Positions 2,691 to 35,162 are shown, counted from the stretch's first letter. The stretch is 62,316 nt of DNA from Alloprevotella sp. (GCA_963627615.1 CAVGBV010000002.1:1-62316), one strand, 5' to 3'. A program made the numbers and translations. The notes: generated by a model not told the origin, from the letters alone.

Positions 2691-5600
2691 AGAATTAAAG
2701 AAAGTAATGGTGATTGGTTCCGGCCCGATCGTAATCGGTCAGGCGGCCGAATTTGACTACGCTGGCACACAGGCCTGCCGGGCACTGCAGGAAGAGGGCC
2801 TGGAGGTCGTTCTGATCAACTCCAATCCCGCGACGATCATGACGGATGAAGCGATGGCGGATCATATTTACATCGAGCCGCTGACGCTGGAGACAGTCAA
2901 GAGGATCATTGAGAAGGAGAAGCCGGACAGCATCCTGTCCACGCTTGGAGGACAGACGGGATTGACACTGTCCATGCAGCTGGCTAAGGAAGGATTCCTG
3001 AAGAGCCATGGCGTACGGCTTCTGGGCGCGCGTCCGGAGACCATCGACAAGGCAGAAGACCGTCAGATGTTTAAGGATACGATGATTTCCATTGGAGAAC
3101 CCTGTATTCCTTCTGAGGTCGTAACGGATCTGGAATCCGGCCTGGCTTTTGCAGAGAAGATCGGCTATCCGGTAATCATTCGTCCGGCCTTTACACTGGG
3201 CGGAACCGGCGGCGGTATTGCCAATAATGTAGAAGAGATGAAAGAGATTGCCTCCAACGGTCTGAATCTGTCCCCGATTACGCAGATTCTGGTAGAAAAA
3301 TGCATCTCTGGCTGGAAGGAGATCGAGTTTGAGGTAATCCGCGACGCCAAGGGCAACAGCATCACCGTCTGCAGCATGGAAAATGTGGATCCGGTCGGCG
3401 TTCATACCGGTGATTCCGTCGTTCTGGCACCGGCAGTTACGCTGTCCAATAAAGAGTATCAGATGCTCCGTACGGCTGCGATCAATATCGTAGAGGCGCT
3501 GGGCGTAGAGGGCGGCTGCAATGTACAGTTCGCTCTGCATCCGGAGAGCATGGAGTATGCCGTCATCGAGGTTAACCCCCGTGTATCCCGCTCTTCCGCA
3601 CTGGCATCCAAGGCGACCGGTTATCCCATCGCTAAGGTTGCGACCAAGATTGCGATCGGCTATACGCTGGACGAGATCAAAAACGCGGTTACGGGCACGA
3701 CTTACGCATGCTTTGAGCCGTCGATCGATTATGCGGTAGTTAAGCTTCCCAAGTGGCCTTTTGATAAGTTTGTCTACGCGAAGAGAACCCTGGGTACACA
3801 GATGAAGGCGACCGGTGAAGTCATGGCCATCGGCACCAGTTTTGAGCAGGCCCTGATGAAGGCAGTCCGCGGTGCGGAGATCTCTCTGGATACGCTGAAT
3901 ATGCCCAGACTCAAGAAGCTGTCCGATGAAGAGGTGTTCGCAAAGGTCGCGGATTGTAACGATGAGCGTCTGTTCGTGATCTTTGAAGCGATGAAGCGTG
4001 GAATGAGCGTGGATAAGATCCACGAGATCACGATGATCGACGAATGGTTTTTGAATAAGCTGCTGCATCTGGTTAAGTTTGAGGAGCGCCTGGCGGCGGA
4101 GCCTCTGACACAGGAGCTGTATCATGAAGCCAAGGTTCTGGGATATCCGGACAAGGCCATCGAGCGCATCAGTGGAAAGAAGATTCCGCAGCACGAAAAC
4201 GCGGTATTCAAAATGGTAGATACCTGCGCGGCCGAGTTCGCGGCACAGACACCGTACTTCTACTCTACTTATGATGAAGAGAATGAAGCGGCAGAGTTTA
4301 TTGCCGATAAAAATGATAAGAAGCCGACCATCATCGTATTTGGTTCCGGCCCGATCCGTATCGGACAGGGAATCGAGTTTGACTATGCGTCTGTTCACTG
4401 TGTATGGTCTCTGAAAAAGGCAGGATTCCAGGTGGTCATTGTCAACAACAACCCGGAGACTGTTTCTACGGACTTCGATACGGCAGATCGCCTGTATTTT
4501 GAGCCGCTGACACCGGAAGACGTGATGAACATCATTCAGGTAGAAAAGCCCTATGGCGTAGTAGTAGCCTTTGGCGGACAGACAGCCATCAAGCTGACCA
4601 AGTTCCTGGATGAGTCCGGAGTTCGGATCCTGGGAACACAGGCAGACAGCATTGACGCGGCAGAGGACAGAGAGCGTTTTGATGAGCTGCTGGAGGAGCT
4701 GAAGATCAAGCGTCCGCAGGGACATACGGTATTCACGCTGGAAGAAGCGCTGAACGCAGCGCATGATCTGGAGTATCCGGTGCTGATGCGTCCTTCTTAT
4801 GTACTGGGCGGTCAGAACATGATCATCGCCTTTACGGATGACGACATCAAGGAATACATGGGGATCATCTTGTCGCACAACATTGAGAATCCGGTTCTGA
4901 TCGACAAGTATTATATGGGAACCGAAATCGAAGTCGACGCGATCTGCGACGGCGAGGAGATCCTGATTCCGGGAATCATGGAGCACATCGAGCGTGCCGG
5001 TGTTCACTCCGGCGACTCGATCGCGGTGTATCCGGCATGGAACATCAGCGACAGTCTGCGTCAGAAGATCGTCAACTATTCCAAGAAGCTGGCTATCGCG
5101 TTAAAGACCAAGGGCCTGGTTAATATCCAGTATGTTATCTATAATAATGAGGTCTATGTAATTGAGGTAAATCCGCGTTCGTCCAGAACGATTCCGTACA
5201 TCAGTAAGGTTTCGGGTGTTCCGATGGTAGATCTGGCAACACGCTGCATGCTGGGCGAGAAGCTCAAAGATATGGGATATGGTACCGGTTTGTACCGCCG
5301 TCCGGCATACATGTGCGTCAAGGTGCCGGTATTCTCCTTTGCGAAGCTGATTGATGTAGACGTACAGCTCGGCCCTGAAATGAAGTCCACCGGAGAGGTG
5401 CTGGGAATTGGCCGTACATTGGATGAGGCACTGTATAAGGGACTTGTAGCGGCAGGCTATAAGATGAAGAAGAACGGCGGTATCTTTATCACGGTTCGGG
5501 ATCGAGACAAGAACGAGATCGCGGAGATTGCGGAAAAGTACGCGAAGCTGGGCTTCCGGCTGTATGCGACCAAGGGAACGGCGGCCGTACTGAAGGCGGC

Positions 5601-6695: not shown

Positions 6696-6722
6696 GACGA
6701 TATGCGACAGGAGGAAGGGCCA

Positions 6723-9266
6723 ATGGAAGAGGAAAAGAAGGTAGAGCTTACCGCGGGAGCCGCGCCGGCGCCGGAGGTTCGGCTGTCGGAGTATAAGGTG
6801 GATAAGGATAAAGGATTGACGGCGGAAGAGGTTGCCAGGCGCCACGAAGAGGGACGGGACAATGTGGACGATATGGGACAGACCAAGACGGTCAAGGAGA
6901 TCATCCGAGGCCATGTGTGTACCCTGTTCAACCTGGTCAATATCGTTCTGGCGATTGCGGTCATCGCCGTGGGATCCTTCAAGAATGTCACGTTTATGGC
7001 GATTATTATAGCCAATACGGCGATAGGGATCTTTCAGGAGATTCGTTCGAAGCGGACGATGGACCGGCTGACCTTTCTCTCGGCCAGTAAGGTCAAGGTG
7101 GTGCGTGACGGCCGGGAAGAGGAAGTTGTAAGCTCTGAGGTGGTTCAGGATGATGTGATGATCCTGGAGCCGGGCAATCAGGTGCAGGCGGACGCTCTGG
7201 TGCTGGAAGGCCAGTGCCAGGTGGATGAGTCCTTTATTACAGGGGAAGCCGACGCGATTGTCAAGGAGCCGGGAGATACGATGATGGCGGGCTCATACCT
7301 GATCAACGGTAAATGCCGCGCGCAGGCGGTACAGGTCGGTAAGGAGAAGTACGTATCGTCCATCTCCAGCGGCGCTAAATTTGTAAAGAAAATCAATTCT
7401 GAGATTATGACATCTTTGCAGTGGATTGTACGCGTGATCTCGGTGCTGATCGTTCCGTTGGGCGTGGTTATTTTTATCAAGCAGTACGGACTGGAAGGAG
7501 CGACGATTCAGAGTGCGGTCGTCTCTACGACGGCGTCCCTGATCGGTATGATTCCGGAGGGATTGATGCTCTTGACCAGTACGGCGCTGGCGGTCAGCGT
7601 TATACGGCTGTCACGCTATAAGGTGCTGGTACAGCAGCTGTATTGTATTGAGACATTGGCGAGGGTGGATACCCTGTGTCTGGATAAGACGGGGACCCTG
7701 ACGGAAGGCTATATGGAGGTAGTGGACACGATGATGCTTGGCGAGCAGTATGCCAAGTGGATTCCCAAGGCACTGGTATCTCTGACGCAGGCGATTCCGG
7801 ACAAGAACGCGACGTTCAAGGCTATCGCGGAAAAATACAAGGATGACGGCAGCGCACCGTGGAAGTGCGTACAGGCGGTGTCTTTCTCCAGTAAAACCAA
7901 ATGGTCCGGCGCCACGTTTGAGGAGCAGGGGACATTCTGTATCGGCGCCGCGGAGTTCCTGTACCCCTCCATGAGCGAAGAGCTGCATAAGAAGATCAAT
8001 GAATACGCGATGGAATACCGTGTGCTGCTGGTTGTGCATTCCAAGGATGGTTTTCAGGGCGAGGCGCTGCCGGACGCGGCGTCGATCGAGCCGATCGGAC
8101 TGATTCTCCTGAGGGATAAGGTCCGTGAGGCGGCCAAGCCGACACTGGAGTATTTTGCGCAGCAGGGCGTGGATATCAAGGTGATCTCCGGAGACAGCCC
8201 GCATACGGTAGCGGGGATCGCCAAGTATACAGGAGTTAAGAACTGGGATAAGATGGTGGACGCCAGCACGCTTACGACCGAGGAAGAGCTGGCGCAGGCG
8301 GCCAATGAGTATACCGTTTTCGGACGGGTGACACCGCAGCAGAAAAAGCAGCTGGTTACGGCCATGAAAAGGGCGGGCCATACGGTTGCCATGACAGGAG
8401 ACGGCGTTAACGATGTATTGGCGCTGAAGGAAGCTGATTGCAGTATCGCGATGGCATCCGGTACGGACGCGGCGAGAAACGCGGCGGAGCTGGTACTGTT
8501 GGAGTCCAATTTTGACGCGATGCCGCAGGTCGTAGCGGAAGGACGCAGGTGTATCAACAATGTCGAGCGGTCCTCTTCTCTGTTTTTGACCAAAACCGTG
8601 TATTCGGGATTATTGGCGCTGCTCTTCGCGTTTATCACGCTGCAGTATCCATTTATTCCGATTCAGATGAGCCTGATCAGTACAAGCTGTATCGGCGTCC
8701 CGGCCTTTTTCCTGGCGCTGCAGCCAAACCGGGAGCGTGTGCAGGGACGATTCCTGAAAAACGTCCTACTAAAAGCAATCCCAGGCGGTCTGTCCGTTGT
8801 CGTCAATATCTGTTTTATTCTGTTTTGCGCCGGGCGTTTCAGCCTGGAATCCAGTATGGTATCCACTCTTTGCGTGGTGGTCGCAGGTTTTACCGGCCTG
8901 CTGATTCTGTTCCGAATCAGTAAACCCTTTAACTGGCTGCGAACTCTTGTATTTATTGCGATGAATCTTATTTTCTGGGGCGGAATCGCGTTCTTCCCGG
9001 AGTTCTTCTCTTTGCAGAGAGCCAATCCGGATCTGCTGGTGTTCATGCTGCTCTTTATGTCCGCAGGTTATGGTCTGCTGAACTTCATGTTCCGTCTGTT
9101 TGAGGATCGGTCCCAGCAGATTCGTCAGTTTAAGGAAAACCGCAGAATTCACAAGGAGGAGCGGATCCAGAGGCGGATCGATAAAAAGGCCGCGAAAGCG
9201 GCGGAGAGAGAAGCCAGAAGAGAGGCAAGGAAGAATAAGCATGGAGGAAAGAACCGGGAAAAATAA
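6723..9266 (+). CDS. Cation-transporting P-type ATPase (type II-like, Ca2+/Mg2+ class)
   Basis: TGE actuator motif, DKTGTLT phosphorylation site, PEGL, TGDGVNDVLALKEAD. ATG 6723 is preferred over 6702 because GGAGGA lies 7 nt upstream. Lys/Arg/Glu-rich C-terminal tail. Confidence 0.85.
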   Translation: MEEEKKVELTAGAAPAPEVRLSEYKVDKDKGLTAEEVARRHEEGRDNVDDMGQTKTVKEIIRGHVCTLFNLVNIVLAIAVIAVGSFKNVTFMAIIIANTAIGIFQEIRSKRTMDRLTFLSASKVKVVRDGREEEVVSSEVVQDDVMILEPGNQVQADALVLEGQCQVDESFITGEADAIVKEPGDTMMAGSYLINGKCRAQAVQVGKEKYVSSISSGAKFVKKINSEIMTSLQWIVRVISVLIVPLGVVIFIKQYGLEGATIQSAVVSTTASLIGMIPEGLMLLTSTALAVSVIRLSRYKVLVQQLYCIETLARVDTLCLDKTGTLTEGYMEVVDTMMLGEQYAKWIPKALVSLTQAIPDKNATFKAIAEKYKDDGSAPWKCVQAVSFSSKTKWSGATFEEQGTFCIGAAEFLYPSMSEELHKKINEYAMEYRVLLVVHSKDGFQGEALPDAASIEPIGLILLRDKVREAAKPTLEYFAQQGVDIKVISGDSPHTVAGIAKYTGVKNWDKMVDASTLTTEEELAQAANEYTVFGRVTPQQKKQLVTAMKRAGHTVAMTGDGVNDVLALKEADCSIAMASGTDAARNAAELVLLESNFDAMPQVVAEGRRCINNVERSSSLFLTKTVYSGLLALLFAFITLQYPFIPIQMSLISTSCIGVPAFFLALQPNRERVQGRFLKNVLLKAIPGGLSVVVNICFILFCAGRFSLESSMVSTLCVVVAGFTGLLILFRISKPFNWLRTLVFIAMNLIFWGGIAFFPEFFSLQRANPDLLVFMLLFMSAGYGLLNFMFRLFEDRSQQIRQFKENRRIHKEERIQRRIDKKAAKAAEREARREARKNKHGGKNREK

Positions 9267-10188
9267 GACACTGCGGACTTCGGTAGAGGAGGGACGGGAG
9301 TATCTGGAACGCTGCGTTTGCGTAAGGGAAGGACAGACGCTGGAACAGGTTTTGGATCGGACTCTATGGGGGAGCATGTTCGAAGTGTGTCCCCTGCTGC
9401 CGGAAAAGTCAGTGGACCTGATCATTGCGGATCCGCCGTATAATCTGACCAAGAACTATAACGGCAGCCGCTTTCAGAAGAAAAAAGCAGAAGAATACGA
9501 AGATTATACGCGGCGATGGCTGCGGGCAGTGTACCCGCTCTTAAAAGAAGACGGCTCTATCTATGTCTGCTGTGACTGGGAGAGCAGTCTGATTATCGGC
9601 CGGGTTCTAAGCGAGATGTTTCAGGTGCGTAACAGAATCACCTGGCAGAGAGAAAAAGGGCGCGGCGCCAAGAGAAACTGGAAGAACGGGATGGAGGATA
9701 TCTGGTTCGCGACCAAAGGCAGCAGTTATACCTTCCATCTGGACGCTGTAAAGCTGCGGCGGAAGGTGTTGGCGCCATACCGGACAGAAGGAGTTCCTAA
9801 GGACTGGACCGAGAGTGATGGCAACCGTTACCGCGATACCTGCCCGTCCAACTTCTGGGATGATATCACGATTCCCTTTTGGTCCATGGCGGAAAATACA
9901 GCGCATCCGACACAGAAGCCGGAGAAGCTGATCGCGAAGATCCTTCTGGCGAGTTCGTCGGAGGGGGACGTCGTGCTGGACCCTTTTTTGGGATCCGGGA
10001 CGACCAGCGTCGCAGCCAGGAAGCTGGGACGGCATTATATTGGAATTGAGTCCGAGGCTCGGTACTGCGTATGGGCGGAACAGCGCCTGGAGGCGGCAGA
10101 AACGGATACCAGGATTCAGGGATATCAGGATGGTGTATTTTGGGAGAGAAATTCTGTCCCGGCAGAGAAAAAGGCTGGTCATCCATAA
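9241..10188 (+). CDS. Beta-class DNA methyltransferase (N6-adenine / N4-cytosine family), apparently orphan
   Basis: Motif IV IIADPPYNL lies upstream of motif I DPFLGSGTT, the beta-class order. HPTQKPEKL is also present. ATG 9241 overlaps the ATPase 3' end by 26 nt. The 9100 start in the ORF track is an Arg-rich readthrough of the ATPase tail. Confidence 0.8.
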   Translation: MEERTGKNKTLRTSVEEGREYLERCVCVREGQTLEQVLDRTLWGSMFEVCPLLPEKSVDLIIADPPYNLTKNYNGSRFQKKKAEEYEDYTRRWLRAVYPLLKEDGSIYVCCDWESSLIIGRVLSEMFQVRNRITWQREKGRGAKRNWKNGMEDIWFATKGSSYTFHLDAVKLRRKVLAPYRTEGVPKDWTESDGNRYRDTCPSNFWDDITIPFWSMAENTAHPTQKPEKLIAKILLASSSEGDVVLDPFLGSGTTSVAARKLGRHYIGIESEARYCVWAEQRLEAAETDTRIQGYQDGVFWERNSVPAEKKAGHP

Positions 10189-12356: not shown

Positions 12357-13823
12357 ATGATTATGGCGGCGGACGAGCTGCGGCAAAGGGCGGAAGCGGG
12401 GGACGCCAACGCACAGTATCTGTTGGCGCTGAAATATTACAAGGGAAGCGGAGAGGTCAAGGATCCGCGGCAGGGATATCTCTGGATCAAGGTGGCGGCA
12501 GAGGGCGGATGCCTGAAAGCACAGAAGGCATTGGGTCTGTTGTATACCAGTGCGCAGCATGCGCCGTATCCGGATGAGAATCCGGAGGAGGCCATCCGGA
12601 TGTATCAGATGGCAGCGCTTCAGGATGACGCGGAAGCGCAGTATTGGCTGGGAAAATGTTATCTGACCGGTTATGGTACGCCGGTTTCCGAAGAAGAGGG
12701 CAAGCGGTGGATTAGTGCGGCGCGGGCCAAGGGCTATGACGAGGAGCCGGACCAGCTGGTCAGCCGACCGGAGGGAGAAGAGGCGTCCAAGAGTGCCTGG
12801 GAATTCTCCAAGGGGGAAGGAACGCCGGACAGTGTGCGCTACGGTGTGCCGACGGATGAGGAGGATAAACCGCGCAGCATGGCGATCGGAGAGGCGAAGC
12901 CGGTGGAAAAAGCGCCGGCATTCGCGATGGATTACCTCAAGACCGGGTTGATTTTTGCTGGCGTTGGTTTGCTGGCCGGCCTTTTGTTGGCCGGCCTGGC
13001 GGCGTTGATCCTGACGCTGTTATCCGGAGGGAGTTCTCTGTACGGCATTATAACGGCGGGACTTGCTATATTGGGCGCCGGAATCGGATTCTATTATGGC
13101 TATCAGGTCGCGCATCAGCGGGCGGTGGACCGGATCTATTTCCGCGGTACCCCCTTTTATCAGCAGCACCAGAAGGACTATGAAGAGATGGATCGGGCCG
13201 GGCAGAGTCAGTATGAGATCTACGTCACTTTGCAGAAGGAACTGCAGCCTTTTTGCTATAACAGTCAGCGGCTGCCGCGGTCGCCTTTTGGAAATTACCG
13301 GGGATACATGATACCGTCTATGATTCTGCCGGGCAGAAAGGCAATGACGGTGATCGATCTTCTGCTGGTCAGTGAGAAGGGGATCTATGTGATCAATGTG
13401 AGCGGAATCACAGGAAACATCAGCGGGCGGGCGGATGATGAAGAGTGGAAGGTGCAGGGCTATACGGGCCGTGTGCGATATATGGCCAATCCGCTTCTGA
13501 AAAACGAAGCTGACATTCAGTCGCTGCAGGACGCGCTCAGAGCCCTTTGCCCGGGCTTCTGGCTGCATGATATTCCAATCTACTCGGTTGTGGTTTTCGG
13601 CGGGCATACCAATGTGGACAAGATTGAGGGGATCTCCAAAGAGGAGAATGTTCATGTGCTGGTCGGCGGCGGAGAGAAGGTCCGGGGATTTATGGAGATG
13701 CAGGAGAGCCGTCACGTCCTGCGGACTGGGGAGATGGCGCAGGTTATGAAGGCGATTGAGCATCTGCTGCGGCAGTATCCGGAGAATAAGAGAATCGCGG
13801 ATCGGGAGAAAAAGTACAATTAA
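12357..13823 (+). CDS. Sel1-repeat / two-TM / degenerate NERD-domain membrane protein
   Basis: N-terminal Sel1-like repeats (AEAGDANAQYLLALKYY, AAEGGCLKAQKALGLLY, DDAEAQYWLGKCYLTGYG). Two hydrophobic helices. The C-terminal NERD-like block VIDLLLVSEKGIYVINVSGITGNISG...EEW has N/S where the NERD E-x-K is expected. Confidence 0.55.
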   Translation: MIMAADELRQRAEAGDANAQYLLALKYYKGSGEVKDPRQGYLWIKVAAEGGCLKAQKALGLLYTSAQHAPYPDENPEEAIRMYQMAALQDDAEAQYWLGKCYLTGYGTPVSEEEGKRWISAARAKGYDEEPDQLVSRPEGEEASKSAWEFSKGEGTPDSVRYGVPTDEEDKPRSMAIGEAKPVEKAPAFAMDYLKTGLIFAGVGLLAGLLLAGLAALILTLLSGGSSLYGIITAGLAILGAGIGFYYGYQVAHQRAVDRIYFRGTPFYQQHQKDYEEMDRAGQSQYEIYVTLQKELQPFCYNSQRLPRSPFGNYRGYMIPSMILPGRKAMTVIDLLLVSEKGIYVINVSGITGNISGRADDEEWKVQGYTGRVRYMANPLLKNEADIQSLQDALRALCPGFWLHDIPIYSVVVFGGHTNVDKIEGISKEENVHVLVGGGEKVRGFMEMQESRHVLRTGEMAQVMKAIEHLLRQYPENKRIADREKKYN

Positions 13824-13837
13824 GAACGATAAAACGG

Positions 13838-13869
13838 GCGAACAACAGCGAATTGTTGTTCGCTTTTTT
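13838..13869 (+). terminator. Rho-independent terminator after the Sel1-NERD gene
   Basis: GCGAACAAC / GTTGTTCGC stem (13838-13846 / 13855-13863) followed by TTTTTT. Confidence 0.75.
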
Positions 13870-13992
13870 ATGTTTTTCGCTGTAAAAAACTGTTAAAATG
13901 ACGCGAAAGTATGCCATATATTTAGAAAAGTGAAGGAGAAAGCATATGTTGGAAAAGGTGAAATAGTGCGAAAATATAGACGGTGGAAAGAA

Positions 13993-14158
13993 TGTGGAGT
14001 ATATGTGGATAAGAAAAGATAAAAAAGCTATAAAAAAGGGTTATTCACAAAGTTGTCCACATTGTCCACATTACTGGGGATAAAATGTGGAGGATTTAAA
14101 AATGCAAGTGGAGTTGTCCGCCTCTTGCAAAGAGTTATCCACTTGAAAATGTGGATAA
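13993..14158. promoter_or_regulatory. DnaA-box cluster
   Basis: Two perfect TTATCCACA boxes, read as TGTGGATAA at 14004-14012 and 14150-14158. One-mismatch boxes: TTATTCACA 14041-14049, TTGTCCACA 14053-14061 and 14062-14070, TTATCCACT 14135-14143. Two-mismatch boxes at 13993-14001 and 14086-14094. Confidence 0.65.
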
Positions 14159-14294
14159 CTTCATACAAATTTGTGTTCGTATAAAAGAGGATTCCGATGT
14201 TCCGTGTCGAATAGAGAAAATACAGGCGGTCGGAAGGACACGGAAGACCGGGTTCCTGATGGACGTTTGAGAATTGAAGTAAGGGAGTGTTTTT

Positions 14295-14831
14295 ATGAGG
14301 TACGAGTTTAAGGGCCGCGACATTGAGATCACAGAGAATCTGAAGGAAATGTCTGAGAAGAAGCTGGAGCGGCTGAGCAAGTTCTTTTCTCCCGATACTA
14401 AAGTTTATGTGACATACAGAGTGGAGAATCGAAGTGTGGCGGCAGAAGTTACGATTCCGGTACAGGGCGCGTCTCCGATACGGGCCGAAGCCAGGGATGC
14501 GGACAAATACGCGGCGTTGGATCAGGCGATGGACAAGCTGGAACGTCAGATTGTCCGTTATAGAAAGAAGCTGCAGACAAGAGCCAAAGCAGACAGGACA
14601 TGGAATACAAAATATTTTGAGGATGTTCCCGGTGAAGAGGAAGAGGCCATGGTCATCCGCAGAATCAAGAGGGTACCGGCCAAGCCGATGGATGTCAATG
14701 AAGCCTGCCTGCAGATGGAGCTTCTGGGACATGATTTCTTTGTGTTCCGTAATGTGGCCAATCAGCAGATCAGCGTGGTGTACAAGCGGAAGGAGCCTGG
14801 CACCTATGGACTGATCGAGCCGGAGGAATGA
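14295..14831 (+). CDS. hpf: Ribosome hibernation promoting factor (long form)
   Basis: 178 aa with an N-terminal S30AE/RaiA domain and a C-terminal dimerisation domain (HDFFVFRN...SVVYKRK..YGLIEP). Sits upstream of secA-prfB, as in Bacillus. Confidence 0.9.
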   Translation: MRYEFKGRDIEITENLKEMSEKKLERLSKFFSPDTKVYVTYRVENRSVAAEVTIPVQGASPIRAEARDADKYAALDQAMDKLERQIVRYRKKLQTRAKADRTWNTKYFEDVPGEEEEAMVIRRIKRVPAKPMDVNEACLQMELLGHDFFVFRNVANQQISVVYKRKEPGTYGLIEPEE

Positions 14832-15217: not shown

Positions 15218-17806
15218 ATGGGATGGATTGAAAAGATCTTTGGCAATACGAGCGCCAAGGAGATCCGGAGGATTGAACCGATCGTCCGCAAGATTGAGAG
15301 CTATGACGAAGCCATGCAGAAGCTCAGCGACAGTGAGCTGGCGGCCAAGACAGACGAGTTTAAAAAGAGACTGGCTGAAGGGGAGACATTGGATGACCTT
15401 TTGCCGGAGGCATATGCCGTAGTACGGGAAGCGACAGGGAGAGTGCTCCATACCAAGCATTTCCGCGTACAGCTCATGGGCGGTATTGTCCTGCATCAGG
15501 GCCGAATCGCCGAGATGAAAACCGGTGAAGGTAAGACGCAGGTAGCCCTTCTTCCGGCGTATCTGAACGCGCTGGAGGGGAAGGGCGTACATGTGGTCAC
15601 TGTCAACGACTACCTGGCCAGCCGTGACGCGCAGTGGATGGGACAGGTACACCGTTTCCTTGGCCTGACGGTGGGCTGTATTCTGAATGATATGAATAAC
15701 GACCAGCGTCGGGAAGCCTACCAGTGTGATATCACTTACGGTACCAACAATGAATTCGGATTTGACTATCTGCGGGACAATATGGTCGTTTACAAGAATC
15801 GGATGGTACAGCGCGGTCTGCATTACGCGATCATCGATGAGGTGGACTCCGTATTGATCGATGAAGCCAGAACTCCGCTGATTATTTCCGGCCGCAGCGG
15901 TAAGTCTACCAATCTTTATAAGCAGGCGGATCTGTTGGCATCCCGCCTGAAGAAGGGCCGCATTGTCGGGGATCAGAGCAAGCTGGCAATGATGATGAAT
16001 GAAGAGGTCCAGGAAGAGGGAGACTTTGTTGTAGATGAAAAGGAAAAGTCCTGCACACTGACAGCGGATGGTATCCGCAAGGCGGAGCAGTACTTCAAGC
16101 TGGAGAATCTGGGAGATCCGGAGAACGCGGAGATTCTGCACCATATCAATACAGCCTTAAAGGCGCGGTATCTGATGGCGCGGGATAAGGACTACGTGGT
16201 CAAGGACGGACAGATCATCATCGTAGATGAGTTTACGGGCCGCCTGATGCCCGGCCGCCGCTATTCGGACGGTCTGCACCAGGCAATCGAGGCGAAGGAA
16301 GATGTAGAGGTAAAGCGGGAGAGCAAGACGCTGGCGACCATTACCTTCCAGAACTATTTTAATAAATATGACAAAAAAGCAGGTATGACCGGTACGGCCA
16401 AGACGGAAGAGGGAGAATTCCAGGATATATACGGTATGGACGTTGTGGAGATCCCGACCAACCGTCCGGTGGCGCGTAAGGATTATCCGGATATGGTCTT
16501 TAAGACCAAAAAAGAAAAATATCAGGCGGCGGTGGAGGAGATCGTGGAGTCTCATGCCAAGGGCCAGCCGGTGCTGGTCGGCACGATCACTATCGAGGAT
16601 TCCGAATTGGTCAGCGGCATGCTGAAGCGTGCCGGCATTCCGCACAATGTACTGAATGCCAAGTTCCATGAGAGAGAGGCCGAGATTGTAGCGTTGGCTG
16701 GTCAGAAGGGCGCGGTTACGATCGCGACCAACATGGCAGGACGAGGTACGGATATCAAGCTGGGAGAAGGCGTGGCGGATCTGGGAGGACTGAAGATCAT
16801 CGGTACCGAACGGCATGAGGCGAGACGTATCGATAATCAGCTCCGCGGACGTGCAGGACGTCAGGGGGATAAGGGTGAATCCCGTTTCTATATCTCTATG
16901 GAAGACGATCTGATGCGTATTTTCGGCGGGGAGCGTATGAAGGCGATTCTGGAGAGGCTTCGGCTGCCGGAAGGCCAGCCCATCAGCGATAAGACGCTGT
17001 CCGGCGCGATCGAGCGTTCCCAGAAGCGCGTGGAGGAGAACAACTTCGGAATTCGTAAGCGCCTGCTGGAATACGATCAGGTAATGAACGAACAGCGCGA
17101 GATTATCTATGAGCAGCGCCGTCAGGTGCTGGAGGGCGAGAATCTGCGCCCGACGTTGATGAAGATGCTGGAGGATATCATTCATTATTATGTAAATGAT
17201 ATGGCCAAGGAGTCCAAGTTCTCCGGCGATTGGAATATGGCGCATCTGAATGAGGAGATTCGGCGGATTGTTCCGTTCCGTCAGATGATCACGATTCCGG
17301 AAGAGGAAAAGGATAAGATCTCGCCGGAAGAACTGAGTGAGAGAATCATTCAGGATGCCAAAAAGATGTATGAGGCCAAGGAGGAGGAACTGGCGCCGGA
17401 GGAGCGTGTGCGCGAGATTGAGCGTGTGATCATGCTGCAGGTGGTCGATCAGCATTGGACGGAGCACATCGATCTGATGGATCAGATGCGCCAGGGAATC
17501 GGTCTGCAGGCATATGCGCAGAAGAATCCTCTGGATGAGTACAAGATCGCTTCTTATGATATGTTTGAGGAGCTGGCGATGAATATTCAGGAGGATACGC
17601 TCAAGGCGATGTTCCATGTGCATATCGCGCAGAATCAGGAAGTGGAGCGTAAGGAAGTCTCCAAGGATATTTCGACCAACCGCGGAAGCGATACCAGCAA
17701 GGTGAAAAAGCCGGTCAAGCGTGCGGAAGCCAAAGTAGGGCGCAATGATCTGTGCCCCTGCGGCAGCGGGAAAAAGTATAAGAACTGCTGCGGCCGCAAT
17801 GTATAA
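15218..17806 (+). CDS. secA: Preprotein translocase ATPase SecA
   Basis: 862 aa. MKTGEGKT Walker [30 protein letters not shown]-terminal zinc finger [14 protein letters not shown]. Confidence 0.97.
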
Positions 17807-17867: not shown

Positions 17868-18993
17868 TTGCTTGCATTTGACGAGTACAAATTAGAGCTG
17901 GAAAAATACAAGGGAGCTGTTGAAGAACTGGGTGAGTCCCTTTAACCCGGCTGAGCTGAGGAATAAGATCGAAGAGTACGACCTCATGGCATCGGAACCG
18001 GATTTTTGGAACGATGCGGAGCGCAGTCAGAGAATTCTGCAGGAAGCGGGAGCGCTGAAGAACAAGCTGGCGGATTATGAGCATGTGATTCAGAGCTATG
18101 AAGATGCCTGCACGCTTCTGGAGATGGCGACGGAGGAGGAAGACGAATCCATGGCCGAGGAGCTGGAGCAGGAGATTCAGGACTTTAAGGACAGTTATGA
18201 GAAGTATCGTCTGAGGGCGCTTCTGTGCGACGAGTTTGACAGTAAGAACGCGATTGTGACGCTTCATGCGGGCGCGGGCGGAACAGAAGCCTGCGACTGG
18301 ACGGAGATGCTGTACAGAATGTACACAAGATGGGCGGAGAAGCAGGGCTATAAGCTGGAACTCCTGGACTATCAGGAAGGTGATGAAGCCGGAATCAAAT
18401 CCGTAACCTTCCAGGTGAACGGAGAAAACGCGTTTGGATATCTGAAGTCCGAGAAGGGAATCCACCGTCTGGTGCGGATTTCACCTTTTGACTCTTCCGG
18501 CCGCCGTCATACTTCTTTTTCTTCCTGCGATGTCATGCCGGAACTGGATGATACGATCCAGGTCGATATCGATCCGGATGATCTGCGGATTGATACCTAT
18601 CGTTCCAGCGGCGCGGGCGGACAGAAGGTTAACAAGACCAGTTCGGCGATCCGTATTACGCATCTGCCGACCGGAATCGTGGTACAGTGTCAGAATGAGC
18701 GTTCGCAGTTCCAGAACAAGGACAAGGCGATGCAGATGCTGAAGGCCAAGCTGTACGAAGTAGAGCAGGAAAAGCAGATGGAGAAGATGGCGGATATCCG
18801 GGGCGAGGTCAAGGATATTGCCTGGGGCAGCCAGATTCGGTCTTATGTATTCCATCCCTACAGTATGGTCAAGGACCTTCGGACAGGAGAAGAGACGGCA
18901 AATATTCAAGGTGTTATGGATGGAGATCTGACACCGTTTATGAATGCCTATCTGATGTGGAAGAGCAAGAAAGCAACCGGTCAGGAGGAATAA
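17868..18993 (+). CDS. prfB: Peptide chain release factor 2 (requires programmed +1 frameshift at 17940-17946)
   Basis: A short frame-0 ORF runs from TTG 17868 (LAFDEYKLELEKYKGAVEELGESL) to TAA at 17943-17945. The +1 frame continues NPAELRNKIEEYD...FWND and carries the SPF and GGQ motifs. Confidence 0.9.
17940..17946 (+). other. RF2 programmed +1 ribosomal frameshift site CTT TAA C
   Basis: CTT(17940-42) TAA(17943-45) C(17946). A purine-rich GGTGAG lies 3 nt upstream, where the internal SD-like stimulator would sit. Confidence 0.8.
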
Positions 18994-19017: not shown

Positions 19018-20418
19018 ATGAAGAGATATCTGCGGCGGGGCCTGGCGCTCCTGCTGGCTGCGTGCCTGCTGCTTGGCATGGCGGGCTGTACGGAAAAATA
19101 CTACAACGGCGGAAAAGCCGTGATTGCGATGGAGAGCAGTACCGAGTCCGAGGTAGATTCCGCGGTGTCCAAGATCAATCGGATCCTGAAGGAAGGCACG
19201 TTGGAGGATCTGATCGCACAGCTTCCTAAAGAAGCGGGAGAGGCGGAAGTGAATCTGACGGACGGCTGGAGTCAGTGGCAGGAGATTCTCGCGCAGCATG
19301 GAGAGCTGAAAAATACCTCCGTTATCGACAGATTTTATTATTGTTATGCCGGGGCGGCGGTAGTCAACTATGAGTTCGAGGATATTACCATGTCCGCGGA
19401 TATGCTGTTCACCAGCGATTACAATCTGGTCTATCTGGACTTCTATGAATCAGCGCTGTCAGCGGAAGCTGCCTATACGCTGCCGGAGGGGCTGGAGGAA
19501 AAGACTGTTAAGATCGGAGAAGGAACCGAATATGAGCTGGAAGGGACGCTGACCTATCCTAAGGGCGGCACAAATCTTCCGGCGGTAGTATTGGTGCATG
19601 GAGTCGGAGCCAATGACCGGGATGAGACGGCGCTCGCGACCAAGATGTTCCGTGATCTGGCCAATGGCCTGGCGCAGCAGGGAATCGCCGTGTTGAGATA
19701 TGATAAGCGGGCGTATACCTATCCGGAGGGATACAGCATTACAGACCTGGATACGCTGACTATTGATTTTCAGACCATCGATGACGCGGTTCTGGCGACA
19801 GAGGTGCTGCGGAAGCAGTCCTGTGTGGATCCGGAGCAGGTCTACATGATCGGACATGATCTGGGCGGATATGTAGCGCCCAGAATCGACTTGCAGGCAG
19901 ATTATGCCGGATACGCGATGATCGCGGTACCCTCCAGAGAGTGGTCGGAGGCCGCGTATGATCAGACCATACGGTACGGCATGAACGGCATGGAGGCGGA
20001 AACAGCGAAATATCTGGAGCCCATGCTGAAGTCCGAGATCGAGTCCATCCGTAAGGTGGATACTTTGGAGGACGATAAGATGACAACGGTCATGCTGAAT
20101 CAGTACGCCTACTTCTGGAAGGATCTGAACGCATATGATTATCCGCAGATGGTTGCGGATACGGATAAGCCGGTAATGATCCTGCAAGGCGGCGCGGACT
20201 ATCAGATTGAAGCGGATGTGGATTATACCGGCTGGCAGGAAAAGCTGGCGGGCAAATCCAATGTTGTCATGAAGCTTTATGACGGCCTCAATCATATGAT
20301 GATGCAGCCGGAAGGATTATACGGCGATGTAACCAAACAATATGCCCGTCCGCTGCATGTCGCGGATGAGGTGATTGCGGATTTGAGCCAGTGGATTTTA
20401 ACACAGTCGGGCAGATAA
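19018..20418 (+). CDS. Lipoprotein, alpha/beta-hydrolase fold with N-terminal accessory domain
   Basis: Lipobox LLLGMAGC after a basic N-terminus. ATG 19018 is preferred over GTG 19009. Hydrolase core VVLVHGVGAND. The nucleophile elbow reads GHDLGG, with Asp rather than Ser. Confidence 0.6.
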   Translation: MKRYLRRGLALLLAACLLLGMAGCTEKYYNGGKAVIAMESSTESEVDSAVSKINRILKEGTLEDLIAQLPKEAGEAEVNLTDGWSQWQEILAQHGELKNTSVIDRFYYCYAGAAVVNYEFEDITMSADMLFTSDYNLVYLDFYESALSAEAAYTLPEGLEEKTVKIGEGTEYELEGTLTYPKGGTNLPAVVLVHGVGANDRDETALATKMFRDLANGLAQQGIAVLRYDKRAYTYPEGYSITDLDTLTIDFQTIDDAVLATEVLRKQSCVDPEQVYMIGHDLGGYVAPRIDLQADYAGYAMIAVPSREWSEAAYDQTIRYGMNGMEAETAKYLEPMLKSEIESIRKVDTLEDDKMTTVMLNQYAYFWKDLNAYDYPQMVADTDKPVMILQGGADYQIEADVDYTGWQEKLAGKSNVVMKLYDGLNHMMMQPEGLYGDVTKQYARPLHVADEVIADLSQWILTQSGR

Positions 20419-20468: not shown

Positions 20469-23400
20469 ATGGGATTTACTCACTTGCATGTACATACGGA
20501 ATACAGCCTTTTGGACGGATCATCCAAGATCACGGAAATCGTAAAGCAGGCGAAAGCGCTGGGAATGGAGAATCTGGCCATCACGGATCATGGAGCGATG
20601 TATGGCGTGATTGATTTCTATAAGGAGTGTAAGGCGCAAGGCGTACACCCTGTAATCGGCTGTGAGGTCTATGTGGCGGAGCGGAGCCGTTTTCAGAAGG
20701 AAGGCCGCTCGGATGCAGAGTATTATCATCTGGTGCTTCTGGCAGAGACTCAGCAGGGCTATGAAAATCTGATCAAGATGGTTTCCCTGGGCTTTATAGA
20801 AGGCTTTTACTATAAACCCAGGATTGATCTGGATCTTTTGCGGGAGAATCATGAAGGAATTATTGCCCTGAGCGCCTGTTTGGCCGGGGCTGTTCCGCGT
20901 GCCTTGATCGGCTCGGGCTATGAAAAGGCCAAGGAGGTCGCACTGGAATATGCCGAAATCATGGGAGAGGGCAATTTCTATCTGGAGCTCCAGGATCATG
21001 GGATTCCGGAGCAGGCACAGGTCAATCAGCAGCTGCTGCGGATGAGCCGGGAGACCGGTTTGCCGCTGGTGGCGACCAACGACGTACATTATACATACAA
21101 AGAAGATGCGGCGGCTCATGATATTTTGCTGTGCATTCAGACTGGGAAAAAGGTGGATGATCAGGACCGAATGCGCTATGAGGGCGGACAGTTCTACCTG
21201 AAATCTCCGGAAGAGATGGCGGAGCTTTTTCCCTATGCGCCGCAGGCGATTGCCAACACCGAGGAGATTGCCAGGCGCTGCCAGGTGGAATTTAAATTTC
21301 ATGAGCTGAAGCTCCCTGCTTATGATGTGCCGCAGGGGTATGATGCCCGCGGGTATCTGCGGATGCTCTGTGAAAAAGGACTTTCGGAGCGTTATGCGCA
21401 GGAGACGCCGGAACTGAGAGAACGGCTGGAATATGAGCTGGGCGTCATCGAGAAGATGGGATATGTGGATTATTTCCTGATTGTATGGGATTTTATCAAC
21501 TATGCCAAATCCCAGGGGATCATGGTAGGACCGGGCCGCGGATCGGCTGCGGGCAGTGTGGTGGCGTATTGTCTGCGGATTACGGATATTGAGCCGACAC
21601 AGTACAGTCTGATTTTTGAGCGTTTCCTGAATCCGGAACGAGTCAGTATGCCGGATATCGACGTGGATTTCTGCTACCGCAGGCGGCAGGAAGTGATCGA
21701 GTATGTGACCAGAAAGTACGGAGCGGACCGGGTAAGTCAGATCATCACGTTTGGTACCATGGCGGCGCGGCTCGTGATTCGGGATGTAGGACGGGCGCTG
21801 GACATGCCTTACGGCGAGGTGGATAAGATTGCCAAGATGATTCCGCGGGACCTGGGAATGACAATTGATAAAGCGCTGGAAGTCAATCCGGAATTGGCGG
21901 GACTCTATAAGAGCGATGAGCGGATCAAGAAGCTGATTGATATGTCGCTGCGTCTGGAAGGACTGCCGCGTCATGCTTCGACCCATGCGGCCGGCGTCGT
22001 GATCTCCAAGCGCCCGGTCATGGATTATGTACCGCTGGCGACCAATGACGGAGCACCGGTGACGCAGTTCACGATGACGACTATCGAGGAGCTGGGTCTT
22101 CTGAAGATGGACTTTCTGGGACTGCGGACACTGACTGTGATTCAGGACGCGTTGGATCTGGTGGAAAAGCAGTATGGGAAAAAGATCAAGACGGACGAGA
22201 TCCCTATGAATGATCCGGAAGTATACCAGACGATCGGCGCGGGCAAAACCGTGGGAATCTTTCAGCTGGAGAGCGGCGGCATGACTTCTTTTATGAAGGA
22301 GCTGCGCCCGGAGGGGATTGAGGACATCATCGCCGGAATCTCCCTCTATCGCCCGGGGCCGATGGACTTTATCCCGAAATATGTAGAAGGGAAAAAACAT
22401 CCGGAAGCGGTGAAGTATACGGCGCCGCAGCTGGAACCGATCCTGAGCGCCACCTACGGCTGCATTGTCTATCAGGAGCAGGTCATGCAGATCGTTCGGG
22501 ACTTGGCAGGCTATACCATGGGACGTGCGGACCTGGTACGTAAGGCAATGTCCAAGAAAAAAGCGGACGTGATGGCCAGAGAGCGGCAGTTTTTCGTCTA
22601 TGGCAATGAAGAAGAAGGCGTTCCGGGATGCGTCAAAAGGGGCGTCAGCGCGGAGCAGGCGGAGAAGATCTTTGACGAGATGACTGATTTTGCCAAGTAT
22701 GCCTTTAATAAGGCCCACGCGGCTTGCTATGCCGTGGTGGCATATCAGACCGCCTGGCTCAAGGTGCATTATCCGGTGGAATTTATGGCGGCGCTGCTGA
22801 CATCTGTCATCGATCATCCGGGAAAAGTCGCGGAATACATCCAGAGTCTCAAGGCGATGAATATCGAGTTGACTTCTCCGGATATCAATGAAGGATATAC
22901 CGGATTTTCCGTGTCAGCGGATCATCGGATCCGGTATGGATTGTCGTCGATTAAAGGTGTCGGCCAGTCCATAGTTGACAGGATTGTAGCAGAACGGGAA
23001 AAAGCGGGGCCGTTCCGGAGTATGACGGACTTTTGCCGTAGAATGCAGGGAGCGGATATGAACCGGAAAGTGCTGGAGAATCTGATCAAGGCGGGAGCCT
23101 TTGATTCTTTCGGCGGGAGCCGGCGGGAGTATCTTGAGCAGAGCGGCACGGCGATCGCGGCGGCTGCGCAATGGTACAAAAATCAGCTTTCTGGACAGAT
23201 GGATCTGTTTGGTATGGGAGATGAAGAAGGAGAAAAGGACGTAGCGGACCGGCTGCAGGGATTAGCGGAATATCCGCAGGAACAGAAGCTGGCGCTGGAG
23301 AAAGAGGTTCTGGGAATCTATCTGACAGGACATCCGCTGCAGGAGTACGAAGAAGAGTGGCGCAGGGTGATCAGCCGCAACGCGGGGGATTTCCGATGGG

Positions 23401-24023
23401 ATGAAGAAGAGGAACGATGCGGAGTGATAGATGGTGAAACCGCGACGATCGGCGGCGTCATCATGAATCTGCAGACCAAGATCACCAAGAGTAATAAGAT
23501 GATGGCGTTTGTCACACTGGAGGATCTCTACGGCAGTGTAGAGGTGCTGCTCTTTCCGAATGTCTATGAAGAAGCGAGGCAGTATCTCGCGACAGATGCC
23601 AGAGTGTTTGTGCGGGGGCGAGTGAGCGTAGGCGATGATGAGAACGCCAAGATGGTTGCCCAGGCGGTAGCGCCCTTTGGGCAGGCTGCGGCGTTGGGCA
23701 GTGAACAGCAGGTGTACCGCAGACGGTATGAGGGACGCGGAACGCAGGTGGCTCCGGCGGCGATGGCTGCGGCAGAGGCGGCGCAGAAGGAGAATACCAA
23801 AGTGCTGTGGCTGCGGCTGGCAGGACAGGCGGATTGGGAGAGCAAGCAGCAGGAGCTGCTGAATCTTTTCCGGCAGTATCCGGGACCGTACGATCTGTAT
23901 CTGTATCTGACAGCGGAGAAGCAGCGCTTAAAAGCTCCGGCGGCATACAGGATCTCTAAGAGCTCAGAATTGTATAATAAGCTGGAGACGCTGTTGGGAG
24001 CCGGATCCGTCGTCTGGCGCTGA
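20469..24023 (+). CDS. dnaE: DNA polymerase III alpha subunit (DnaE type)
   Basis: 1184 aa. PHP domain HLHVHTEYSLLDG, catalytic MPDIDVDF, C-terminal OB fold. Confidence 0.96.
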   Translation: MGFTHLHVHTEYSLLDGSSKITEIVKQAKALGMENLAITDHGAMYGVIDFYKECKAQGVHPVIGCEVYVAERSRFQKEGRSDAEYYHLVLLAETQQGYENLIKMVSLGFIEGFYYKPRIDLDLLRENHEGIIALSACLAGAVPRALIGSGYEKAKEVALEYAEIMGEGNFYLELQDHGIPEQAQVNQQLLRMSRETGLPLVATNDVHYTYKEDAAAHDILLCIQTGKKVDDQDRMRYEGGQFYLKSPEEMAELFPYAPQAIANTEEIARRCQVEFKFHELKLPAYDVPQGYDARGYLRMLCEKGLSERYAQETPELRERLEYELGVIEKMGYVDYFLIVWDFINYAKSQGIMVGPGRGSAAGSVVAYCLRITDIEPTQYSLIFERFLNPERVSMPDIDVDFCYRRRQEVIEYVTRKYGADRVSQIITFGTMAARLVIRDVGRALDMPYGEVDKIAKMIPRDLGMTIDKALEVNPELAGLYKSDERIKKLIDMSLRLEGLPRHASTHAAGVVISKRPVMDYVPLATNDGAPVTQFTMTTIEELGLLKMDFLGLRTLTVIQDALDLVEKQYGKKIKTDEIPMNDPEVYQTIGAGKTVGIFQLESGGMTSFMKELRPEGIEDIIAGISLYRPGPMDFIPKYVEGKKHPEAVKYTAPQLEPILSATYGCIVYQEQVMQIVRDLAGYTMGRADLVRKAMSKKKADVMARERQFFVYGNEEEGVPGCVKRGVSAEQAEKIFDEMTDFAKYAFNKAHAACYAVVAYQTAWLKVHYPVEFMAALLTSVIDHPGKVAEYIQSLKAMNIELTSPDINEGYTGFSVSADHRIRYGLSSIKGVGQSIVDRIVAEREKAGPFRSMTDFCRRMQGADMNRKVLENLIKAGAFDSFGGSRREYLEQSGTAIAAAAQWYKNQLSGQMDLFGMGDEEGEKDVADRLQGLAEYPQEQKLALEKEVLGIYLTGHPLQEYEEEWRRVISRNAGDFRWDEEEERCGVIDGETATIGGVIMNLQTKITKSNKMMAFVTLEDLYGSVEVLLFPNVYEEARQYLATDARVFVRGRVSVGDDENAKMVAQAVAPFGQAAALGSEQQVYRRRYEGRGTQVAPAAMAAAEAAQKENTKVLWLRLAGQADWESKQQELLNLFRQYPGPYDLYLYLTAEKQRLKAPAAYRISKSSELYNKLETLLGAGSVVWR

Positions 24024-29478: not shown

Positions 29479-30039
29479 ATGAATAAAGTGATTTTGATGG
29501 GTCGTTTGACCCGTGATCCGGAAGTGCGTTATTCTCAGTCCGGACAGGCCGTATGCCGTTATACTCTGGCAGTGAACCGCTCTTATAAGAGAGAGGGCGA
29601 GCCGGATGCTGATTTCTTCAATGTTATTGCATTTGCGCAGCGTGGTGAGTTTGCGGGAAAGTATTTCCGTAAAGGCATGATGGTTGCGGTGTGTGGCGAG
29701 TTGAGAAACAGCAGCTACGAACAGAACGGTGTTAAGCGCTATGTAACGGACATTATTGTAACGGACCAGTATTTTGCAGAGAGCAAGGCATCTTTTGAGG
29801 GACGCAGCCAGGGCGGAAGCCATGCGCAGTCGTCCGGCGGCTATCAGAATTACCAGTCGGTAGCCCCGCAGAACAACAATTTTGCTCCGCAGAATAATGG
29901 CTTCGCACCGCAGGGCAATCCGTATCAGCAGCCTTCTTATGGGGCGGCTCCGATGGATTCTCAGACCGGTGCGGGTGGCCCGGAAGGCTTTACGCCTGTA
30001 GATGCAACATTAGAAGGTGACGCGGATCTGCCGTTTTAA
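29479..30039 (+). CDS. ssb: Single-stranded DNA-binding protein
   Basis: OB-fold N-terminus MNKVILMGRLTRDPEVRY, a Gly/Gln/Pro-rich linker, and an acidic DADLPF tip. Confidence 0.95.
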   Translation: MNKVILMGRLTRDPEVRYSQSGQAVCRYTLAVNRSYKREGEPDADFFNVIAFAQRGEFAGKYFRKGMMVAVCGELRNSSYEQNGVKRYVTDIIVTDQYFAESKASFEGRSQGGSHAQSSGGYQNYQSVAPQNNNFAPQNNGFAPQGNPYQQPSYGAAPMDSQTGAGGPEGFTPVDATLEGDADLPF

Positions 30040-34562: not shown

Positions 34563-35162
34563 ATGGAGCCGAACAACATGAAGCAGGTTTTTATAAGGAG
34601 TGTTGTGCGCGTTGTCGCCAGAGAAGGTCTGGGGAAGGCAACGACCAAAGCGATTGCCGCAGAGGCCAAACTCAATGAAGCCTACATCTATCAGTGTTTC
34701 TCCAATAAGGACGAGCTTCTGAGCGAGGCGTTCTATCTGGAGGATAAGAATTTTGCACAATATCTGCATGAAGCGCTGCGGGTCATGAAAACAAAGGGGA
34801 CATCCTGGAGGGACCGGGCGTATCAGCTATGGATAGGCAGCTGGAGATATATGCTGGAAAAAGAAGATGACTGCTGCTTTTATCTTCGGTATTATTATTC
34901 TGCCCAGTGCCGGACACATGCATACGCCACGCATCTGAAGTTCTTTCATGATCTGATTGACAGTACGAGGCCGACATTTAAGCCGGAGACCAATGTGGAT
35001 ATGCTGATCCATCAGATCTTTGATACGATGCTCTCTTTTGCGGCGAGAGTACTTGGCGGCGAGATGGAGAACAATGAAGAGACAGCAAAGTGGGCCTTTG
35101 AGCAGATCTACAGCTTTGTAATACCCAATGTCAGGCCGGAAGTGCTAGAGGCGATTTTATGA
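34563..35162 (+). CDS. TetR/AcrR-family transcriptional regulator
   Basis: N-terminal HTH (REGLGKATTKAIAAEAKLNEAYIYQCFSNKDEL). 199 aa. The stop overlaps the sipW start (ATGA). Confidence 0.75.
   Translation: MEPNNMKQVFIRSVVRVVAREGLGKATTKAIAAEAKLNEAYIYQCFSNKDELLSEAFYLEDKNFAQYLHEALRVMKTKGTSWRDRAYQLWIGSWRYMLEKEDDCCFYLRYYYSAQCRTHAYATHLKFFHDLIDSTRPTFKPETNVDMLIHQIFDTMLSFAARVLGGEMENNEETAKWAFEQIYSFVIPNVRPEVLEAIL

Follow-up and report, generated by a model that had tools for sequence, protein, structure and literature searches.

Introduction

In the Bacillota, the replication origin (oriC) is bipartite, flanks dnaA and contains DnaA-trios and a DUE. DnaA boxes may also be gathered at other sites; in E. 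coli, the datA locus titrates DnaA and is a site of DnaA-ATP hydrolysis, a process (DDAH) for which IHF and a specific box spacing are needed. To our knowledge, it is almost only in B. subtilis and E. coli that such secondary DnaA-box clusters have been characterised experimentally.

The B. subtilis DnaA-box clusters (DBCs) outside oriC are located at sda/yqeG, ywlC, ywcI-vpr, yydA, trmE/jag and gcp-ydiF (Okumura et al. 2012, PMC3245932; Smith & Grossman 2015, PMC4447404). Their functions are the control of neighbouring genes and the titration of DnaA: at such clusters DnaA activates sda and represses dnaA, ywlC and yydA, and the deletion of six DBCs leads to early initiation, which a single DBC rescues even when placed ectopically (PMC3245932). 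B. subtilis hpf (yvyD) is described as being transcribed by SigH and SigB (PMC12421865; Drzewiecki 1998).

Here we describe a cluster of DnaA boxes upstream of hpf in a 62,316-nucleotide stretch of DNA (the window, from the first letter of which all positions are counted). The cluster resembles the B. subtilis DBCs in being intergenic, in containing several consensus TTATCCACA boxes and, within a Bacillota genome, in lying apart from dnaA-dnaN and at a conserved syntenic position that adjoins a promoter which DnaA could regulate; in every sequence-level criterion of that kind of element, namely density, non-origin site and conserved address, the two agree. It differs from them in its location, as none of the eight in vivo regions of B. 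subtilis is at yvyD/hpf and yvyD is mentioned in neither DBC paper (PMC3245932, PMC4447404); in its lineage, which consists of uncultured gut Clostridia, Lachnospiraceae and Vallitaleaceae; and in having a stereotyped core (a reverse box, three head-to-tail boxes, a reverse box) accompanied by Spo0A-box 7-mers. The gene order hpf-secA-prfB is that of B. subtilis, and in both cases a SigH-type promoter (AGGAwww-N11-nnnGAATw) lies about 100 bp before the start codon of hpf. However, the B. subtilis gene has SigB control and a CodY site, whereas no SigB-type element was identified in the window, and no DnaA boxes have been reported at the B. subtilis hpf promoter, whereas a seven-box cluster abuts the promoter described here. 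With E. coli datA the locus shares a non-origin cluster of at least about five high-affinity boxes that could lower the level of free or active DnaA, but there is no sequence or positional homology between the two.

We found no paper that pairs a DnaA box with hibernation promoting factor among those retrieved, the papers on DnaA and yvyD having been examined in part, and no description of the hpf cluster in the literature on DnaA and yvyD and on DnaA boxes in Clostridia, consulted partly by title and abstract.

A dense cluster of DnaA boxes upstream of hpf

A scan of the window with TTATCCACA revealed seven DnaA boxes with at most one mismatch, two of them perfect, within 155 bp (14004-14158). 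The first, B1 (14004-14012, minus strand, TTATCCACA, no mismatches), is 85% conserved and is the reverse-oriented flank of a triple module that starts 37 bp further on. This core module (14041-14070, plus strand, TTATTCACAaagTTGTCCACATTGTCCACA) is composed of B2 (14041-14049, TTATTCACA), the trinucleotide aag, and the abutting boxes B3 (14053-14061) and B4 (14062-14070), both TTGTCCACA; all three are on the plus strand with one mismatch each, in a head-to-tail arrangement of box-3 bp-box-0 bp-box. A second reverse flank, B5 (14075-14083, minus strand, TTATCCCCA, one mismatch), lies 34 bp from the module start, and in the alignment of related genomes its position is occupied by a perfect TTATCCACA in L003-L006. 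The promoter-proximal part of the cluster is formed by B6 (14135-14143, plus strand, TTATCCACT, one mismatch) and B7 (14150-14158, minus strand, TTATCCACA, no mismatches), with centres at about -82 and -67 relative to the predicted transcription start. Together they are a convergent pair, a palindrome AGTTATCCAC-N8-GTGGATAACT with 10/10 complementary positions (14135-14158), which the alignment places in L001-L006 and which is missing from L007 and L008.

The first-pass annotation of the window had reported two perfect boxes, four with one mismatch, of which two abut, and two with two mismatches. The perfect boxes are those at 14004-14012 and 14150-14158, both on the minus strand, and the abutting ones are those at 14053 and 14062, both on the plus strand; the one-mismatch boxes turned out to number five (14041, 14053, 14062, 14075 and 14135). 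The two-mismatch boxes are present as well, at 13993-14001 (TACTCCACA) and 14086-14094 (TCCTCCACA), both on the minus strand. As their conservation (48% and 50%, respectively) is no better than background, they were not counted and are probably no genuine sites.

In the entire window, 25 boxes with at most one mismatch were found, as compared to 12.6 ± 3.3 in dinucleotide shuffles, none of which (0/100) reached 25; seven of the 25 lie within the 166 bp of 13993-14158. The density of boxes in the cluster is 42/kb, versus 0.18/kb in the other intergenic DNA of the window (5.6 kb) and 0.30/kb in its coding DNA, and the Poisson probability of at least seven boxes is 1.1e-13 against the window background. 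When scored in 200-bp windows the cluster reached 17, and the runner-up anywhere in the window 5.5. The existence of the cluster is thus confirmed, and with it a density above that of the other intergenic DNA of the window. Two one-mismatch boxes elsewhere, TTATCCGCA on the plus and TAATCCACA on the minus strand (20139-20225), make up the second-densest spot in the window, a weak one; they are located 250-330 bp 5' of dnaE, within the 3' end of an alpha/beta-hydrolase ORF.

The boxes might have arisen by chance, or might be bound by some other regulator with a similar 9-mer as its target, and a tandem duplication of a 9-mer could indeed have generated B3 and B4. We regard this explanation as highly unlikely in view of the probability of about 1e-13 against the window background, of a consensus across families that is exactly TTATCCACA, and of the conservation of the boxes but not of their spacers. 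That the cluster serves the binding of DnaA outside of an origin is a reading in which we have high confidence, and DnaA would be expected to occupy it in the cell.

Genetic context of the cluster

The gene upstream of the cluster (12357-13823) encodes a protein with Sel1 and NERD domains (Pfam) and is followed by an intrinsic terminator (13836-13865, plus strand; a 13-bp stem, then a T run), the stem of which is kept in the alignment of relatives and which bounds the hpf control region on its left side. The first gene 3' of the cluster is hpf itself (14295-14831, plus strand), encoding a long-form hibernation-promoting factor of 178 aa (Pfam Ribosomal_S30AE and Ribosom_S30AE_C), with a ribosome-binding site, AAGGGAG (14281-14287, plus strand), that is conserved in relatives. 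It is followed on the same strand by secA (15218-17806), which has a promoter-like element of its own, and by prfB (17920-18993), the Pfam assignments confirming the downstream order hpf, secA, prfB given earlier. A perfect 11-nt inverted repeat (14981-14991/15075-15085) with an 83-nt loop is found between hpf and secA, and the secA promoter-like sequence, TTGCAT...TGTTACAAT, lies 3' of it.

A scan of the spacer for sigma-70 promoters gave a single weak match 5' of the cluster, TTAAAA-18-TATATT (13893-13922, plus strand; 9/12 matches), at a frequency not exceeding that in shuffles. This match is speculative; its -10-like block, TAT(A/T)ATTT(A/G)GA, is partially conserved in relatives. A CodY-box match in a conserved block near 13915-13935 was dropped, as it agreed by eye at 8 of 15 positions.

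An inverted repeat, TGCAAG-N15-CTTGCA (14103-14129), encloses TTGTCCGCC, a box with three mismatches. The repeat is kept in L002-L006, with 65% identity across 14095-14134, and may be a candidate site for another regulator. A second inverted repeat, of 21 nt and 81% complementary, has one arm in the hpf promoter region and the other in the 5' UTR (14188-14208/14237-14257). The fold of the 5' UTR (14220-14300) was no better than that of shuffles (z=-0.61), and Rfam scans of 13700-14400 (E<=1) and of 16 module loci (gathering threshold) returned only noise and two tRNAs, with no known RNA element. Small ORFs 3' of the module (MLEKVK in the window, 11-aa ORFs in Lachnospiraceae) were rejected for want of conservation.

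Two other parts of the window were noted. The region 34563-43526 has the makeup of a sortase-dependent pilus or adhesin locus, containing genes for a TetR regulator, several small proteins without Pfam matches, a camelysin-like (Peptidase_M73) protein, a 1018-aa VWA-domain protein, a Cna_B-repeat protein and a sortase. An N6/N4 DNA methyltransferase ORF (9100-10188, plus strand) overlaps the end of a P-type ATPase gene (6702-9266) and covers a 191-aa minus-strand ORF (9607-10182) which has no Pfam match and is probably spurious.

The cluster is very unlikely to be an origin

In its many consensus boxes on both strands, some of them head-to-tail and closely spaced, the cluster is similar to a Bacillota oriC, and it also adjoins an A-rich tract; it could accordingly be suspected of being the true oriC, a second origin or the decayed remnant of one. 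What it lacks, however, are the other features of a Bacillota oriC: dnaA or dnaN, a switch of skew, DnaA-trios and an AT-rich unwinding element that is conserved. All 2-kb bins of 1-44 kb and 48-62 kb have a positive GC skew, which ranges from +0.12 to +0.32 on both sides of the cluster with the same sign across it, and accumulates monotonically up to 44 kb. Neither dnaA nor dnaN was found among approximately 39 Pfam-annotated proteins (most of the larger ORFs up to 49.7 kb). A scan of both strands for DnaA-trios gave no run of three or more. The A-rich tract (14013-14040, plus strand; 64% A), already described in the first-pass annotation, does exist and holds the 30-mer with the highest AT content in the spacer. 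However, it lacks conservation, unrelated and GC-richer sequence taking its place in relatives, and it is not a DUE. No conserved AT-rich unwinding element was found next to the boxes. Of the 120 metagenome matches to the triple module that were listed (see below), none showed a DnaA signature less than approximately 7 kb from the module, and the possibility that the module is the ordinary oriC layout of these taxa was rejected on this ground. The flanking genes, in addition, are co-oriented core genes. An origin of any of these kinds is, in our judgement, extremely improbable.

Two of the arguments earlier raised against an origin needed amendment. The statement that no replication gene is present holds for dnaA and dnaN among the annotated proteins but not for dnaE (20469-24023) and ssb (29479-30039), neither of which is an origin marker. 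The statement that gene orientation does not switch is incorrect for three minus-strand genes at 9.6-11.8 kb, although the GC skew stays positive. The preference expressed there for a secondary cluster, with a role in titration or in a DnaA-regulated hpf promoter, is nevertheless supported, as all of the origin criteria tested fail. Comparative data add strong support: 33 of 80 species have a cluster at hpf/secA, with a conserved SigH-type promoter downstream.

Conservation of the cluster among relatives

The window was assigned to an uncultured Clostridia MAG; L001 has 99% Hpf identity to it, and Candidatus Faecimorpha stercoravium is among its relatives. The NERD-hpf spacer of the window was aligned with those of L002 and six other related genomes, with Hpf identities down to 65%; L002, being near-identical, was excluded from the conservation counts. 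Box columns were 73% identical to the window, versus 52% for the non-box columns in the span of the cluster (Mann-Whitney p=1e-5). The triple module was conserved at 80-98%, and its boxes B2 and B4 at 93-98%. The locus is syntenic in eight related genomes, with core genes on both flanks.

In a wider survey, 80 species-level genomes were retrieved with Hpf, and a cluster was defined as at least three boxes (at most one mismatch each) in 200 bp. Of 33 clusters found, 29 lie up to 700 bp upstream of hpf and four (L009, L025, L028 and L033) between the hpf terminator and secA, the SigH-type hpf promoter being retained in all four; in the 615 kb of loci from the 80 genomes, no cluster of at least three boxes was found outside hpf/secA. 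Box density in the 500 bp 5' of hpf was 3.30/kb, as compared to 0.44/kb elsewhere in these loci. Clusters were present in Lachnospiraceae MAGs, Anaerostipes (L077, L078) and Vallitalea (L019), among others, and no boxes were found at the hpf genes of Agathobacter and Roseburia. The gene 5' of the cluster varies with lineage, being NERD/Sel1, thioredoxin reductase (TrxB), a short-chain dehydrogenase (SDR) or NlpC/P60. As the upstream gene changes while hpf stays downstream, the cluster travels with hpf/secA and not with the upstream gene.

The part of the cluster common to all carrier lineages is the triple module. In 677 kb of hpf loci 26 such modules were counted, all of them at 170-390 bp 5' of hpf. 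That of L030 is inverted, and the related L021 has an inverted near-module which falls outside the search pattern. In 70 non-redundant loci the usual flanks of the module were a reverse box approximately 40 bp before it and another 30-60 bp after it, a layout that B1 (-37) and B5 (+34) of the window match exactly.

The predicted hpf promoter carries SigH-type and Spo0A-box motifs

A SigH-type promoter is predicted at 14186-14214 (plus strand), with the -35 element AGAGGATTC (14186-14194), an 11-nt spacer and the -10 element GTCGAATAG (14206-14214); it fits the consensus applied (-35 RnAGGAwWW, N11/12, -10 RnnGAATww) and places the transcription start of hpf near 14221. The distance from the end of B7 to the -35 element is 27 bp. 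The looser pattern AGGAWW-N15/16-GAATW has 6 matches in the window, against 0.85 expected. In relatives the -10 element is 89% conserved, and a SigH-type pattern is located about 95-130 bp 5' of the hpf ATG in 15 genome loci, among them L001-L006, L008, the Vallitaleaceae L009, L010, L017 and L019, and L025, L028 and L033, and at -155 in the metagenome locus L158. Use of this promoter by SigH would be consistent with the SigH dependence of B. subtilis hpf/yvyD, which is established knowledge, the call itself being drawn here from the sequence.

The gap between the triple module and AGGA is 116-117 nt both in the clade of the window and in Vallitalea L019, the Hpf of which is only 46% identical; in other loci it is 103 nt (L008) or 203 nt (L158). 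These distances are modest evidence for a spatial coupling of module and promoter. In many Lachnospiraceae, the module is located at least 370 bp from hpf, and hpf has a sigma-A-type promoter there.

The -10 element coincides with a perfect match to the Spo0A-box 7-mer, TGTCGAA (14205-14211, plus strand), which occurs three times in the 62 kb. Among the metagenome matches listed, TGTCGAA/TTCGACA was present at 1.24/kb within -250/+350 of triple modules, compared to 0.035/kb, a 35-fold enrichment which, as the loci are phylogenetically related, is not an independent-sample statistic. The 7-mer ranked first of 630 7-mers of the same composition and was found in 50 of 91 dereplicated loci among these matches, in both orientations and both before and after the module. 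A pairing of Spo0A sites with DnaA-box clusters in Clostridia is thus suggested, and Spo0A, too, may act at the hpf promoter.

The triple module is also found at other addresses

An unbiased scan of metagenome contigs for the exact module pattern gave at least 120 loci. Among the 120 matches listed, hpf was located downstream, at 95-790 bp, in 33; seven were incomplete copies of the TrxB-hpf context, two had secA directly downstream, and in two more secA was divergent from the module with hpf downstream. Approximately 60 of the 120 had no hpf, and an exclusive association of the module with this gene was therefore rejected.

These hpf-less loci comprise a few recurrent settings and some single cases. 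In one setting (for example L081, L084, L093, L095, L116 and L140), an NlpC/P60 gene and an oppositely oriented V-ATPase operon converge, and the module occupies the gap between them. The module is found here ca. 130-300 bp after the NlpC/P60 gene and is followed by a conserved palindrome-like sequence, AAACAnATGTTTTG. A strong TTGACT-N17/18-TATAAT promoter with no obvious gene is also present in this setting, and an unannotated small RNA is possible. In another setting, in AT-rich Clostridium-like DNA, a DUF1294 gene precedes the module and TetR/rhodanese/GlyRS (glycyl-tRNA synthetase) genes follow it; the flanks in these contigs (L103, L113, L154, L124, L143, L149, L086 and L144) have repeated TTACATAA/ACATAAT motifs. 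Single cases adjoin genes for a DnaD-like protein, a YmdB-like protein and proA. In convergent gaps the module has no co-oriented gene downstream, so an obvious promoter to regulate is not needed for its persistence. As the listed modules recur in several contexts, none of them with a DnaA signature, the module is probably a general non-origin landing pad for DnaA in Clostridia, with hpf/secA as its most frequent address.

The triple module was also found in 28 IMG/VR viral contigs (L201-L228; also L136, L155, L171 and L191), 22 of which share TTATACACAGAGTTATCCACATTATCCACA, and hpf, secA or other chromosomal contexts were found in none of the 28. In these contigs the module lies in a non-coding gap of approximately 1 kb that separates divergent gene blocks, beside iteron-like repeats (aatgtcaata...gta(a/t)atgc(c/t)gacacta); in L211, for example, the gap spans 4251-5295 and the module 4352-4381. 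The viral region may act as a DnaA-dependent origin, of a phage or a plasmid, or may serve to capture DnaA. Given this identical triple-box design within a long, iteron-bearing non-coding region, one could suppose that the hpf cluster itself descends from a phage or plasmid, as the remnant of an origin or of an element that recruited DnaA. The chromosomal contexts are, however, absent from the viral contigs, and the window locus has core genes on either side, keeps its synteny in eight related genomes and has no integrase or phage genes adjoining it among its Pfam-annotated neighbours. Such a mobile-element origin was rejected on account of the synteny and the core-gene flanks, and we consider it very improbable.

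A possible role for DnaA in hpf control

The reading we propose is of a secondary DnaA-box cluster in the hpf control region, through which DnaA would modulate hpf transcription; we hold this to be an evenly balanced proposition. Regulation and titration are both plausible for the cluster, as both are known from the B. subtilis DBCs, and titration of DnaA would be a side effect of hpf regulation or an alternative to it. According to the proposed mechanism, DnaA would bind as a cooperative oligomer that nucleates on the triple module (14041-14070), with the inverted boxes at 14004 and 14075 flanking the nucleation site, and it would spread as far as the convergent pair at 14135-14158. The DnaA sites would thus span from about 45 to 215 bp 5' of a SigH-type promoter that overlaps a Spo0A-box. 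From there, bound DnaA might modulate the transcription of hpf, and possibly of hpf-secA-prfB, tying ribosome hibernation to DnaA/replication status in addition to the stationary-phase control exerted by SigH and Spo0A. With at least seven DnaA molecules held, the cluster could act as a DnaA sink as well. Should the weak promoter at 13893-13922 be genuine, transcription from it would have to cross the DnaA-bound cluster, which might then be a roadblock to read-through. Activation of hpf by DnaA is slightly favoured over repression, by analogy with B. subtilis sda, which DnaA activates and where the boxes are also 5' of the promoter, as the boxes here lie wholly 5' of the -35 element.

Regulation of hpf is favoured by the exclusive linkage of the cluster to hpf/secA across changes of gene order in the 80-genome loci, by the proximity of B6/B7 to the -35 element, by the conserved spacing between module and promoter, and by the co-occurrence of SigH and Spo0A motifs, which belong to the same physiological transition. 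Among the counterpoints are the inverted module of the L030/L021 group, the distant module of many Lachnospiraceae and the box-less hpf of Agathobacter and Roseburia. Furthermore, the position of the cluster 3' of hpf in L009, L025, L028 and L033 means that its link may be to the locus and not to the hpf promoter.

Several of these observations would suit a different role, that of a pure DnaA sink or architectural site which buffers the initiator, restrains re-initiation or organises the chromosome, with hpf/secA as a mere address. A single B. subtilis DBC, even an ectopic one, complements the early initiation caused by the six-DBC deletion, and the hpf cluster has many high-affinity boxes, can be found on either side of hpf, exists in inverted copies and occurs as a module in convergent gaps with no downstream gene. 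Nonetheless, an address-only role does not sit well with the repeated exclusive linkage to hpf/secA in spite of a changing upstream gene, nor with the conserved distance from module to promoter and a promoter-proximal box pair only 27 bp from the -35 element; we view it as possible but doubtful.

A broader version of hpf regulation can be put forward tentatively, as a scenario we lean against: in Lachnospirales-like Clostridia, DnaA, Spo0A and SigH would jointly control hpf, and in some species secA, in a circuit leading from replication status to the shutdown of translation. It would work through a portable landing pad (a reverse box, approximately 37 bp, three head-to-tail boxes, a reverse box) that would have been reused at a handful of chromosomal loci and co-opted by phages.

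Implications

The hpf cluster is not among the known B. subtilis sites, and on our best reading it would be a lineage-wide addition to the secondary clusters of the Bacillus type. It is conserved in many uncultured and cultured gut Clostridia, at a gene that decides ribosome hibernation. The triple-box module provides a simple search pattern for candidate DnaA-controlled sites in the genomes of Clostridia and in their phages. Confirmation would raise the interest of two features in particular, the connection between DnaA and ribosome hibernation and a portable triple-box design common to phages. Should titration of DnaA be the main role of the cluster, these anaerobes would have in it their first candidate for a titration element of the datA/DBC type; should DnaA act at hpf, the cluster would provide a direct link from replication-initiation status to translational shutdown, layered on the control by SigH and Spo0A.
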